IMG/VR virus record: IMGVR_UViG_3300045988_000736
Location: 1-5,714 of that record
DNA length: 5,714 nt
Origin: a virus
Reading direction: 5' to 3' (one strand)
The translations under genes were made by a program, and so were the position numbers. Below are positions 2,610-5,714 of the stretch, in pieces. Below the pieces are notes generated by a model. That model searched no databases. It worked only from the letters and a program-made list of their open reading frames with translations, and had not been told where the DNA came from. Each line of letters opens with the position of its first letter. Positions within the stretch are counted from its first letter, which is position 1.

Positions 2610-2638
2610 TTGACTTTTGCACACACTGACAATATAAT
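2610..2638 (+). promoter_or_regulatory. Near-consensus sigma70-type promoter: -35 TTGACT (2610-2615), 17-bp spacer, -10 TATAAT (2633-2638). Predicted TSS is about 2645
   Basis: Read directly from the sequence. Located 30 nt upstream of an AAGGAGG SD and the first gene of the small-gene/peptidase/VP1 block. Confidence 0.65.
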
Positions 2639-2668
2639 AAAACCAGAACGCAAAAAGGAGGTAACACA

Positions 2669-2785
2669 ATGGCACATAGAAGCGGCGCAGGACGTGGAGA
2701 CCAGCGGAAATTTACGCAGACCGCAAAGCGGACGAAAAACATCAACGTCCGACCGAAGGTCAGCCGGGGCGGCATCCGGCTGTAA
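2669..2785 (+). CDS. 38-aa highly basic arginine-rich peptide MAHRSGAGRGDQRKFTQTAKRTKNINVRPKVSRGGIRL. It is a candidate DNA-binding/packaging protein (phiX174 J / gokushovirus ORF8-VP5 analog). It is not in the supplied ORF track because it is short
   Basis: Perfect SD AAGGAGG (2655-2661) 7 nt upstream of ATG 2669; net charge about +10; first ORF after the strong promoter. Confidence 0.55.
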   Translation: MAHRSGAGRGDQRKFTQTAKRTKNINVRPKVSRGGIRL

Positions 2786-2819
2786 CATTCAAAATAGAAC
2801 AATGAAAGGAGGTGAACAA

Positions 2820-2927
2820 ATGGACTTTAATGAAAGCATGAACATTTTTCTGAAAATCCTCGCAATGCTGGATAAGATTTACCACGCAATTGTGAAGGAA
2901 GAGGAAGAGACTGAAGAGGAGGAGTAA
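2820..2927 (+). CDS. 35-aa peptide MDFNESMNIFLKILAMLDKIYHAIVKEEEETEEEE. It has an amphipathic helix plus a poly-Glu C-tail and is translationally coupled to the downstream peptidase
   Basis: SD AAAGGAGGTG (2805-2814) 5 nt upstream of ATG 2820. The TAA stop (2925-2927) sits 1 nt before the peptidase ATG, and its GAGGAGGAG codons form the peptidase SD. Confidence 0.45.
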   Translation: MDFNESMNIFLKILAMLDKIYHAIVKEEEETEEEE

Positions 2928-2928
2928 G

Positions 2929-3324
2929 ATGTCACGTGAAGAATACAGCTTATTTAATCAGAGCACCCACCAAATAAGTGAACACTTCAAAGTTAGAGAA
3001 TTTGCACAAAAAGACTTCCAATGCGACAAGGTAATTGTAGACACGGAACTTATAAACGTTTTGGAAGATATACGCGCACATTTCAACAAACCTGTGATTG
3101 TAACCTCTGGATACCGGACACCGGAATACAATGCAAAAATCGGCGGTGTAAAAAACTCACAACACACAAAGGGAACAGCGGCTGATATCAAAGTATCTGA
3201 AGTTCCGGCAAGATGGATACAAAAGTATCTAAAAGACAAATATCCGAATAAATACGGCATCGGAAGTTATTTAACTTTCACACACATCGACATAAGAGCT
3301 AAAAAAGCACGTTGGAGGGGCTAA
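2929..3324 (+). CDS. Peptidase M15 family (M15_3 / VanY-like D-Ala-D-Ala or L-Ala-D-Glu peptidase fold) cell-wall hydrolase, 131 aa. Putative endolysin or entry-associated peptidoglycan hydrolase
   Basis: Motifs SGYRTPEYN, SQHTKGTAADI (His...Asp zinc ligands) and FTHIDIR (second His); SD GAGGAGGAG 5 nt upstream of ATG 2929. Confidence 0.85.
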   Translation: MSREEYSLFNQSTHQISEHFKVREFAQKDFQCDKVIVDTELINVLEDIRAHFNKPVIVTSGYRTPEYNAKIGGVKNSQHTKGTAADIKVSEVPARWIQKYLKDKYPNKYGIGSYLTFTHIDIRAKKARWRG

Positions 3325-3327
3325 AAA

Positions 3328-3582
3328 ATGACACTGAAATTCTACAGTTTTCATGATGCAATCACGAATGGATACAGCAGTCCTTTCTTACAGCAAAACA
3401 GGGCGCAGGCAATCCGCACAGCAAAGTGGAAGGCAAACGAATCAAAACTGCAGGAAATCGAGGACATCAGCCTGATGGAGCTGGGCGACTTCAACACCGA
3501 AACCGGCGAAATGTTCGGAGCGAAACCGAACCAGCTGTGCAAGCTGGTAGACCTTAAGGAGACATACAATGTTAAATCCTAA
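3328..3582 (+). CDS. Hypothetical protein, 84 aa (MTLKFYSFHDAITNGYSSPF...)
   Basis: SD GGAGGGG (3314-3320) 7 nt upstream of ATG 3328; overlaps the peptidase stop; no recognisable domain. Confidence 0.6.
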   Translation: MTLKFYSFHDAITNGYSSPFLQQNRAQAIRTAKWKANESKLQEIEDISLMELGDFNTETGEMFGAKPNQLCKLVDLKETYNVKS

Positions 3583-3988
3583 CATTCTGGTACGGTACTA
3601 CGGAGTACCAACCGAAAGAGTGACAAGCAAAACCGGCAGCGAAACCGCACCAACGTGGAAAGCGGTAAAGCGACCGAACGGAACAACGGACTACATCCGA
3701 CAACCGGACGAAAATGTATACGAAAAAATTCAGAAAGCGGGCGAGGGATACGACCTTGCAAGCGCAATCGCGAGACTGGAAGCCGGAGATTTTTCCATCA
3801 AAGCAAAGAGCACAATCTACACCGAGGGCACACCACTGGAAAACCTGCCTAAGGACATCGTAAACATGCACGAAACGGCACAGAAGGCAGCGGAAACGCT
3901 GGAAGAGCTGAAACAGACACAGCAGACCGAACAGCCGAAGCCGGAAGAAAAAAAGAAAGAGGTGAAGCAGAACGAACCGGAACAGTGA
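3569..3988 (+). CDS. Hypothetical protein, 139 aa, with a charged K/E-rich C-terminal tail. It is a candidate internal scaffolding (VP3-like) protein by size and its position immediately upstream of VP1
   Basis: SD AAGGAG (3556-3561) 7 nt upstream of ATG 3569. It overlaps the preceding ORF by 14 nt in another frame. The functional assignment rests only on position and size. Confidence 0.65.
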   Translation: MLNPNILVRYYGVPTERVTSKTGSETAPTWKAVKRPNGTTDYIRQPDENVYEKIQKAGEGYDLASAIARLEAGDFSIKAKSTIYTEGTPLENLPKDIVNMHETAQKAAETLEELKQTQQTEQPKPEEKKKEVKQNEPEQ

Positions 3989-4013
3989 AAGCCATTTCGC
4001 GCAAGTGCCGCGA

Positions 4014-5666
4014 ATGGAAAGACCGCGGTCAAAATTTGATCGCGGTCATCAGCTCCTGACGACCATCAACGAGGGCGAACTGGTACCAATCTATATGGAT
4101 GAAGTACTACCGGGTGACACGGCACGGGTACAGCTTAACGGGCTTATCAGAATGAGCACTCCTATCTATCCTATCATGGATAACTGTTACATGGACACAT
4201 ATTTCTTCTTTGTGCCTGCAAGACTTTTGTGGGAACACTTTGAAAATATGTTCGGTGAAAACGACACCAACTATTGGGCAGAAGATACGGAGTATTCCAC
4301 TCCAAAATGCACCATCGGCGGCACAAGCGGCCTTGCAAATGGTTCCATCGGTGACTATTTCGGACTGCCGACACAGGTAAATAACGCGCTGGAAGTAAAC
4401 GCATTGCCTGCACGAGCATACTGCAAAATCTACAACGAGTGGTTCCGAGATGAAAATCTTGAAGCGCCGCTTATGTTGGGATACAAAAAGACGGATGACG
4501 GCGGCACAAATGCAGACGCAAGCAAAGTAACCGAAAATGCAAACGCACTCGAACAGACGACCAACACCAACGAAGCAATGTTGTATGCAATGAAACCGGC
4601 AAGGGCGGGCAAGTTCCACGATTATTTTACATCTTGTCTTCCTTCACCGTTGAAAAATGCAGAACCGGTAACGCTGCCAATGACAGGAGCAGCAGGAGTA
4701 TATGCATACTCAGACAGAGAGCTAAAAAATAAAACAGAAGCAACCATAAACAGCTTTACAAACCAAACGGACTTCGCAGGAACAACGAATCAAAGGCTTT
4801 ACGACACAATCCTGTGGGCAAATGAGCCAGAACAATTATACGTAGGAAACGGAACAGCAAAAGAACAAATGTGGTTGGGCGCAGACCTGAGCAAAGTAAC
4901 CTCAACAACGATCAACGACTTGCGACAGGCCATAGCGCTGCAGCACATCTTCGAGAGCGATGCCAGAAACGGCACGAGGTACAGAGAATTCCTTTCCGGG
5001 ACGTGGGGCGTAACAAGTCCGGACAGCCGTCTGCAAATTCCTGAATACATCGGCGGGCAACGCATTGCAATCAATGTGAATCAGGTGGTGCAGACCAGCC
5101 AGACGGACACGACGACCGGACAGGCACTGGGCAACACGGCGGCATACAGCCTAACGACTTGTTCAAAGCAGATGGCAGACTATGCAGCTACGGAGTACGG
5201 CTATATCATCGGGCTGGCGGTGGTACGAGTAGAACACAGTTACCAACAGGGTCTTGGAACCAAATGGACGCGCGGCGGTCGATTCACGTACTACGACCCG
5301 AGATTAGCAGCACTAGGAGAACAGCCAGTATACAACAGAGAAATCTACGCAGACGGAAGCGAAAAAGATAGCCAGATTTTTGGCTATCAGGAGGCTTGGG
5401 CGGATTACCGATACAAGCCTTCCTACGTAACCGGAGAAATGAGGTCAAACTATCAGACGTCTTTGGATGCATGGCACTATGCAGACGACTATGACAAGCT
5501 GCCGACACTATCGGCAGAGTGGATTCAGGAAGGACGTGAAAACATCGATAGAACTATTGCGGTAACGTCCGCAGTAAGTCACCAATTCTTATGTGATTTC
5601 TGGTTCAACGAAACGTGGTACCGGGAAATGCCAATCTACAGTATCCCGGGCATCGAAAGAATTTAA
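4014..5666 (+). CDS. Major capsid protein VP1 (Microviridae F-protein family, about 550 aa)
   Basis: Conserved N-terminal region RSKFDRGHQLLTT...PIYMDEVLPGDT and DTYFFFVPARLLW, typical of gokushovirus VP1. ATG 4014 is preferred; the ORF track begins at an in-frame GTG at 4005. Stop TAA is at 5664-5666. Confidence 0.93.
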   Translation: MERPRSKFDRGHQLLTTINEGELVPIYMDEVLPGDTARVQLNGLIRMSTPIYPIMDNCYMDTYFFFVPARLLWEHFENMFGENDTNYWAEDTEYSTPKCTIGGTSGLANGSIGDYFGLPTQVNNALEVNALPARAYCKIYNEWFRDENLEAPLMLGYKKTDDGGTNADASKVTENANALEQTTNTNEAMLYAMKPARAGKFHDYFTSCLPSPLKNAEPVTLPMTGAAGVYAYSDRELKNKTEATINSFTNQTDFAGTTNQRLYDTILWANEPEQLYVGNGTAKEQMWLGADLSKVTSTTINDLRQAIALQHIFESDARNGTRYREFLSGTWGVTSPDSRLQIPEYIGGQRIAINVNQVVQTSQTDTTTGQALGNTAAYSLTTCSKQMADYAATEYGYIIGLAVVRVEHSYQQGLGTKWTRGGRFTYYDPRLAALGEQPVYNREIYADGSEKDSQIFGYQEAWADYRYKPSYVTGEMRSNYQTSLDAWHYADDYDKLPTLSAEWIQEGRENIDRTIAVTSAVSHQFLCDFWFNETWYREMPIYSIPGIERI

Positions 5667-5714
5667 AAAATGTACAAAACACACAAAAAAGAAAGCTGAA
5701 ACAACAAAAAAAAT
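5620..5714. repeat. Second copy of the 95-nt terminal repeat (identical to 1..95)
   Basis: Exact identity with window start. Confidence 0.95.

Follow-up and report, generated by a model that had tools for sequence, protein, structure and literature searches.

A promoter-headed gene trio in a human-gut gokushovirus is probably the start of its main transcription unit: VP8, a conserved helical protein and an accessory M15 peptidase

The stretch of DNA analysed here (the window) is the 5,714-nucleotide (nt) IMG/VR virus record IMGVR_UViG_3300045988_000736, a complete circular human-gut gokushovirus genome encoding VP2, VP4, VP8, VP5, VP3 and VP1. The subject is the interval at 2610–3324, where a promoter-like site precedes three small open reading frames (ORFs) of 38, 35 and 131 amino acids (aa), the last of them coding for an M15 peptidase. 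There is good reason to think that this interval opens the main transcription unit of the virus and is not a self-contained lysis or entry module, and that the M15 peptidase is most likely its lysis enzyme. A preliminary description made from the sequence had proposed such a module; its endolysin-type M15 enzyme still stands, but the 38-aa peptide appears to be VP8 and the 35-aa gene does not appear to be tied to the peptidase.

A conserved sigma-70-like promoter downstream of VP4 would drive VP8, the gene for a 35-aa helical protein (the helix gene) and the M15 gene, and then VP5, VP3 and VP1. VP8 would be packaged with the single-stranded DNA (ssDNA) as the counterpart of phiX174 J, and the helix protein would accompany VP8 throughout one group of gut gokushoviruses, in those with a peptidase and those without one alike. 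The M15_3 peptidase would have been captured by horizontal transfer and would most likely degrade peptidoglycan for lysis; it would be made in the cytoplasm without an export signal and with no recognisable holin. The features of the interval are these:

2610–2638, + strand: putative sigma-70-like promoter, TTGACT-17-TATAAT, 11 of 12 consensus bases
2669–2785, + strand: predicted VP8, the 38-aa ORF, with a profile match to PDB 8DES_E
2820–2927, + strand: the 35-aa single-helix ORF, from conservation, the ratio of nonsynonymous to synonymous substitution rates (dN/dS) and AlphaFold2
2916–2924, + strand: Shine-Dalgarno (SD) sequence of the peptidase gene, GAGGAGGAG, read from the sequence
2929–3324, + strand: Peptidase_M15_3, the 131-aa ORF, from Pfam PF08291 and PHROG 894

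The 38-aa ORF lies 7 nt downstream of the SD sequence AGGAGG and encodes a strongly basic peptide (7 Arg, 4 Lys and 1 Asp; isoelectric point (pI) 12.0). A profile built from 8 homologues aligns end to end with the 39-aa ‘Putative DNA binding protein’ of PDB 8DES_E (E=0.004), the C-terminal RGGIRL being common to both (8DES_E ends in MRGGIRL), and matches the SpV4 ‘DNA binding protein ORF8’ (9CGM) weakly (E=0.13); the profile is required, as a single-sequence PDB search with the peptide returned no match. The ORF also matches PHROG 10695 (E=2.7e-6), and its family was found by tblastn in 730 microvirus records, many of them annotated ‘DNA binding protein’, with an ORF so annotated occupying the same position in many relatives. 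No genome examined lacks it, whether M15 is there or not, and a dN/dS of 0.05 against 13–14 close relatives indicates purifying selection. These matches point to the 38-aa peptide being VP8, a phiX174 J-like DNA-binding virion protein, and as such it would be a structural or packaging protein and not a member of a lysis module. It resembles phiEC6098 VP8 (8DES_E), the SpV4 protein (9CGM) and phiX174 J in length, basic character, F..TA..K core and C-terminal RGGIRL anchor, although the match to phiEC6098 VP8 is detectable by profile only and residence in the virion is a prediction. VP8 has been described as a J-protein analogue lining the capsid interior (PMC11281519) and as a conserved gene linking gokushoviral subfamilies (PMC9239249).

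The 35-aa ORF, with sequence MDFNESMNIFLKILAMLDKIYHAIVKEEEETEEEE and the SD sequence GGAGG 7 nt upstream, is also under purifying selection (dN/dS=0.115 against the same 13–14 close relatives). Compared with more distant relatives, its dN is 0.07–0.37 (0.07–0.20 in full-length alignments), with dS at 0.57–1.7 or saturated. The peptidase has a dN/dS of 0.25 in the same comparison with close relatives, the highest in the genome, which makes it the least constrained gene; at 0.05, 0.115 and 0.25, all three ORFs should be real genes. Homologues of the 35-aa protein are encoded by all 65 members of a relatives set (61 IMG/VR genomes seeded on VP5 and 4 GenBank genomes), by 31 GenBank microviruses and by at least 71 further IMG/VR genomes, and the gene is unannotated in nearly all of those 31. 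The family itself appears to be unannotated: it has no Pfam or NCBIfam match, and searches of PHROG, Pfam and NCBIfam returned only inconsistent hits to differing families (E ~0.01–0.1) that permit no assignment.

AlphaFold2 models the 35-aa protein as one helix spanning residues 3–34 (predicted local distance difference test, pLDDT, 95), and its hydrophobic moment is 0.52. Homologues have a core motif, IL..(L/V)D.IYHA, with I13, L14, D18, I20, Y21, H22 and A23 as its invariant residues; the tail beyond it varies and is acidic or polar. The amphipathic helix of the preliminary description is real as a prediction, but it is not transmembrane-like. Its maximum 19-residue Kyte–Doolittle mean is 1.29 (1.0–1.07 in homologues) compared with 2.79 for phiX174 E in the same test, so that no transmembrane helix of the kind that would mark a holin was found by this measure, and the helix itself contains K, D, K and H. 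Nor does the polyglutamate tail, presented earlier as a feature of the module, hold up as one. The tail is not conserved, as the net charge is −8 in the window protein but −1 and +1 in homologues; it is missing from homologues that lack M15 directly after the helix gene, and its terminal GAG GAG GAG codons double as the SD sequence of the peptidase gene. The 35-aa ORF is, on this evidence, a conserved gene whose product is predicted to be neither transmembrane nor tied to the peptidase.

All three ORFs, which lie where the preliminary description had placed them, have a GGAGG-type SD sequence 4–7 nt upstream, and the second and third meet in the junction TAA-g-ATG, with the stop codon at 2925–2927 and the start at 2929. 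The 131-aa protein matches Pfam Peptidase_M15_3 (PF08291) at E=6.3e-27 and 94.3 bits (cut-off 23.2) over profile positions 2–108 of 108, M15_2/DUF882 more weakly (30.7 bits, cut-off 27) and PHROG 894 ‘endolysin’ at E=1.5e-43; the nearest NCBIfam model, the periplasmic L,D-endopeptidase MepK, is far below its cut-off. The H..D..H arrangement noted earlier is intact. H79, D86, H119 and D121 are invariant among 24 homologues, giving the H-x6-D...H zinc-ligand pattern, and the counterparts of H79 and D86 in the Streptomyces zinc DD-peptidase 1LBU are, by alignment, H154 and D161, which we take to be zinc ligands. An AlphaFold2 model (pLDDT 95.3) shows a compact globular domain from residue 3, and its best structural match in the PDB is 1LBU (E=3e-4), followed by Hedgehog-N, VanY, Ply500, LdcB and VanX, all of which mark the LAS/MD (Hedgehog/DD-peptidase) fold. 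The protein is a single domain of pI 9.5. As the preliminary description had also held, it carries no second or wall-binding domain and no signal or signal-arrest-release (SAR) sequence, its maximum 19-residue Kyte–Doolittle mean being 0.55 and its N-terminal 30 residues hydrophilic. Judged by these matches the protein is a bona fide M15 (LAS-type) peptidase of the type used by tailed phages as endolysin, with presumed zinc-dependent catalysis.

The helix gene and the peptidase gene do not keep constant company. VP8, the helix protein and M15 are all encoded in the 65 relatives, where three gene orders occur: VP4-VP8-helix-M15-VP5 (the window type), VP4-M15-VP8-helix-VP5 (the sister type, in which VP8 stands between M15 and the helix gene) and, in one genome, M15-helix-VP8. 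A distant gokushovirus group with VP1 only 40–48% identical again has the helix gene immediately 5' of VP8. Among 14 GenBank genomes of that group, 8 have M15 directly upstream of the helix gene and 6 have no M15, with unrelated small ORFs instead. When DNA was scanned with a pattern for the helix motif, a further 71 microvirus genomes came to light, of which 56 have M15 and 15 lack it. Conversely, the lemur-gut gokushoviruses Dulem virus 203, 189 and 178 have a tightly packed VP4-VP8-M15-VP5 order and no helix homologue anywhere (3 of 3). Taken together, a helix gene without M15 in 6/14 and 15/71 genomes and M15 without a helix gene in the three Dulem viruses argue that the two genes are distributed independently.

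In some M15-less gokushoviruses the start of the helix gene is overlapped by a conserved 68-aa ORF with the motif E(Y/C)E(Y)(I/F)IRKLYR..K(K/R)AYT.(D/E)EAK; it lies at 1637–1843 in genome L071, 1638–1844 in L074, 4350–4556 in L076, 4049–4255 in L077 and 1876–2082 in L079. L073 and L074, both M15-less, also have a Cys-rich ORF of 55–58 aa upstream.

The peptidase gene has a history of its own. The window M15 is only 41% identical to that of the sister clade though the VP1 proteins are 76% identical, and it is closer to a Providencia chromosomal homologue (57–58%) and to the endolysins of K1E-like, Proteus and Klebsiella podophages and of Yersinia phage phiR1-37 (50–55%). The sister-clade M15, for its part, is 83–85% identical to the M15 of a gokushovirus clade whose VP1 is only ~40% identical. 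More than 100 clusters (at 90% identity) of window-type M15, 68–94% identical to the window's, are nearly all found on contigs that do not exceed a microvirus genome in length, and many of these contigs are full-length (5.4–5.9 kb); on longer contigs identity falls sharply, to 55% or less. M15 here is thus, to judge from the genes, a mobile accessory gene that has been horizontally acquired or replaced more than once, in two lineages and at different sites. This agrees with earlier work. M15_3 genes were reported in five gut Gokushovirinae and six Alpavirinae, with at least two transfers inferred, an endolysin role proposed, and one gokushovirus enzyme found to have its affinity with Providencia and the others with Faecalibacterium (Roux et al. 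2012, PMC3394797), and peptidases have been described as recurrent lysis-associated accessory genes exchanged between microvirus families (Kirchberger et al. 2022, PMC9239249). The statement that microviruses encode no peptidoglycan hydrolase, on which the preliminary description leaned, is accordingly out of date (PMC3394797, PMC9239249, PMC11980548).

Transcription appears to run on past the three small ORFs. Every gene of the window genome is on the + strand, and the remaining features are as follows:

131–150, + strand: terminator-like hairpin AGCCGGGCAAAGACCCGGCT with a T-run, between VP1 and VP2
159–1049, + strand: VP2 (pilot protein)
1549–2544, + strand: VP4 (replication initiator)
3328–3582, + strand: VP5, from Pfam Phage_ORF5 (E=1.2e-12)
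3569–3988, + strand: VP3 (scaffold)
4005–5666, + strand: VP1 (capsid)

The TTGACT-17-TATAAT site, called near-consensus in the preliminary description and rightly so, is the sole match to at least 11 of 12 consensus bases on either strand of the genome, and first-order Markov simulations of the window yield a match of this quality by chance about 5% of the time. A site matching at least 10 of 12 bases is found between VP4 and the first downstream gene in 62 of 62 relatives, whether VP8 or M15 comes first. VP5 starts 3 nt past the peptidase stop codon, with its SD sequence inside the 3' end of the peptidase gene, and no terminator-like site was found on the coding strand between the peptidase and VP5, nor before VP3 and VP1. 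The promoter had been said to drive three genes; it does head those three, but it probably heads a whole VP8-helix-M15-VP5-VP3-VP1 unit, its activity being predicted from the consensus match. The only terminator-like site on the coding strand is the 131–150 hairpin, which by analogy is likely to be the end or an attenuator of the unit starting at 2610, and it may lower the expression of VP2 and VP4. The analogy is with phiX174, which has leaky terminators.

The whole genome was searched for a membrane partner of the peptidase, with a Kyte–Doolittle mean of at least 1.6 over 19 residues as the mark of a transmembrane (TM)-like window. No TM-like window occurs in any coding-strand frame. The window genome consequently has no canonical holin-endolysin cassette, with neither a TM holin nor a signal or SAR sequence on the endolysin, and no phiX174 E-type amurin, that is, no small overprinted ORF with an N-terminal TM helix among its open coding-strand frames. 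On this point the preliminary description, which saw no transmembrane holin, was correct. The contrast with cellular homologues of the enzyme is marked: a TM-like ORF lies on the same strand within 1 kb in 70 of 80 cellular loci and in 1 of 66 microvirus genomes of the clade. Microvirus genes were found at none of those 80 loci. Some other M15-bearing gokushoviruses do have TM ORFs, and the microvirus Ebor encodes a 45-aa predicted membrane protein, so that the absence is specific to the clade of the window.

Two candidates for a hidden membrane protein were considered and rejected. A coding-strand window at 4184, in an alternative frame within VP1, reaches a Kyte–Doolittle mean of 1.45 but is only 19 codons long from stop to stop. 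A minus-strand 78-aa ORF at 1241–1477, between VP2 and VP4, has two TM-like stretches but is broken by stops or frameshifts in genomes L012, L007, L008 and L020, and it lies within a 230-nt segment missing from many close relatives. Minus-strand frames of TM-like character are found all along the genome, a consequence of its A-rich coding strand.

The M15-bearing Dulem viruses offer candidates of their own. Their VP1 genes contain a very hydrophobic overprinted open frame of 32–54 codons (Kyte–Doolittle 3.1–3.2), at 773–937 in both L186 (Dulem virus 203) and L188 (Dulem virus 178) and at 839–937 in L187 (Dulem virus 189), which is a candidate E-like or holin gene. Dulem virus 189 also has, at 2607–2783 right after VP2, an annotated 58-aa ‘hypothetical protein’ with a strong N-terminal TM segment (MVDFLLLLLIIGCLLGLYFLWLVF...), a candidate holin.

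Several points weigh against the account preferred here. The lytic role, the promoter activity and the zinc dependence are all inferred. A cytoplasmic endolysin that has no holin, no SAR or signal sequence and no TM protein to help it lacks an established way to the wall, which makes the simple endolysin model incomplete. Only 1–8 nt separate the helix gene from M15 in two of the three gene orders, and a functional link between them is possible, although in so compact a genome adjacency is weak evidence of one. The nearest cellular relatives of the peptidase are split between Enterobacterales and Clostridia, and close VP1 relatives, which might mark prophages, were not found in 185,579 species genomes. 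The strong SD usage argues only against Bacteroidota as host, and nothing here lends support to the thick-walled host suggested in the preliminary description.

The missing route to the wall would be supplied if the 35-aa amphipathic helix were a non-canonical, membrane-active holin substitute that releases M15, the two forming the two-component lysis cassette proposed in the preliminary description. It is easy to see the appeal of this model. Within the window genome the peptide has the most hydrophobic stretch of any coding-strand ORF (the higher value at 4184 not being in an ORF) and is amphipathic (moment 0.52), it is predicted as one long helix, its gene is under purifying selection and stands close to M15 beside two different M15 lineages, and no other membrane-active candidate was found. 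We nonetheless regard it as unlikely. The helix gene is retained without M15 in 6 of the 14 and 15 of the 71 gokushoviruses discussed above, the Dulem viruses have M15 without it, and VP8 separates the two genes in the sister clade. The homologues are less hydrophobic still and have several charges inside the helix, the invariant polar motif D.IYHA suggests a defined protein contact over general membrane activity, a net charge of −8 is unfavourable for anionic membranes, and the polyglutamate tail, not conserved, has its second use as an SD sequence. A second way around the missing export step is for M15 to act from inside on the precursors of peptidoglycan (UDP-MurNAc-peptide, lipid II or D-Ala-D-Ala), so that growth leads to lysis; M15 would then achieve by enzyme action what the protein antibiotics of microviruses and leviviruses achieve. 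The lack of any export signal on M15, of a holin and of a TM ORF anywhere on the coding strand would then be natural. Precursor supply is what all the mechanistically resolved single-gene lysis proteins block (phiX174 E, Qbeta A2 and phage M Lys), and VanX and VanY, precursor-acting members of the M15 clan, are both among the structural matches of the M15 model. We hold precursor attack to be distinctly improbable even so, given that the closest characterised relatives of M15 are tailed-phage endolysins, that 70 of 80 cellular loci place a holin-like ORF near the enzyme, that the nearest NCBIfam model, however distant, is the periplasmic MepK, and that the sequence gives no pointer to precursor specificity. 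Both ideas meet in a broader proposition, to which we would give only a small chance: that the clade lyses its host with a cytoplasmic M15 and no holin, either with the 35-aa protein as a new non-transmembrane release factor or by precursor attack from inside. The presence of M15 in all 65 relatives, kept or re-acquired at different sites and from different sources, would on this proposition mean that its function is important and works without a TM partner.

An enzyme acting from outside would need no holin at all, and M15 might then be carried by the virion and used at entry, making a local opening in the wall as the DNA is delivered. Its small size and basic pI would fit this, as would a predicted transcription unit shared with the structural genes VP8, VP3 and VP1. 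M15 is, however, neither fused nor related to any structural protein, its variable position and non-orthologous replacement are typical of an accessory gene, and its closest phage relatives are annotated as endolysins and not as virion proteins. Ebor is the single microvirus in which this was tested, and its hydrolase Gp7 is found in virions only in trace amounts (PMC11980548), and solved gokushovirus capsids show VP1 and VP8 and no enzyme (PMC11281519; PDB 8DES, 9CGM). An entry role is on balance very improbable. Lysis by peptidoglycan degradation, with M15 expressed as an accessory gene near the head of the main transcription unit, accordingly remains the reading we prefer.

Outside the interval, the VP2-VP4 intergenic region has some structure that may concern replication. 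Within its conserved part, at 1052–1226, are at least eight copies of the 9-mer TTTCAACA(G/A), some of them tandem, flanked by sequence that is conserved in all relatives. These repeats resemble iterons and could be an origin or a binding site for Rep or a regulator. Downstream lies a GC-rich segment of 230 nt (~1260–1489) with a perfect hairpin, GGGGCCGTCAA-7-TTGACGGCCCC, at 1362–1390 and CGCGCACGCG repeats at 1448–1481. It is found in about half of the close relatives and missing from the others, most of which (L005, L006, L010, L014–L016 and L023) have ~300 extra nt between VP4 and VP8 that in L005 include a 59-aa ORF at 4860–5039. An Rfam scan of the window, this segment included, gave nothing at threshold; the segment could be a complementary-strand origin or an element like a primosome site.

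Most of the genome has close counterparts. Positions 1–95 of the window are identical to 5620–5714, an assembly overlap that makes the true circular length 5,619 nt. The closest GenBank record, Gokushovirus WZ-2015a KT264784 from human faeces (L001 here), is 93.6% identical over 97% of the window, belongs to the same virus group and has the same neighbourhood, with a peptidase 90% identical. Only VP1, VP2, VP4 and VP5 are annotated in it, and its unannotated genes include VP8 at 4201–4317, the helix gene at 4352–4459 and M15 at 4461–4856. The human-gut gokushoviruses KX513864 and KX513876 already have ‘peptidase M15’ annotated, and the former has the identical order VP4-VP8-helix-M15-VP5 with a peptidase 71% identical. 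Nothing essential sets the window apart from the M15_3 genes of gut Gokushovirinae already on record (Roux et al. 2012, KX513864, KT264784), apart from annotation: the peptidase ORF is unannotated in KT264784, and the two small ORFs are unannotated both there and in records of the KX513864 type. This analysis adds that the 38-aa peptide is predicted to be VP8, that the 35-aa proteins form a family and that no TM ORF is present.

Farther afield, the podophage (K1E/SP6-like, Proteus and Klebsiella) and phiR1-37 endolysins of PHROG 894 and the Providencia, Oscillospiraceae and Faecalibacterium homologues are likewise single-domain M15_3 proteins of ~120–135 aa, 43–58% identical and with the same H/D/H, but their genes sit in canonical cassettes and the window gene does not. 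Lysis by phiX174 E is also that of a tiny ssDNA phage with no holin involved; E, however, is no enzyme but an overprinted membrane protein whose N-terminus forms a TM helix, and the window genome has a soluble hydrolase instead. Another parallel is Gp7 of Ebor (Tainavirinae), an accessory microvirus peptidoglycan hydrolase that also resembles tailed-phage enzymes, degrades peptidoglycan in vitro and occurs only in trace amounts in virions (Bardy et al. 2025, PMC11980548). Ebor belongs to another subfamily and has another host, the best HHpred match of Gp7 (6SSC_A) is not among the PDB matches of the window peptidase, and the 45-aa predicted membrane protein Gp1 of Ebor has no equivalent in the window genome.

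M15 peptidases of gut gokushoviruses were described as early as 2012, and GenBank already contains nearly identical genomes. The main result is a correction, in which an apparent lysis or entry module becomes VP8, a small conserved gene and an accessory M15 peptidase. The means by which a soluble microvirus endolysin would cross the membrane is a genuine gap, one that can be tested and that earlier papers already imply, and the conserved, largely unannotated 35-aa family is present in well over a hundred gut gokushovirus genomes.

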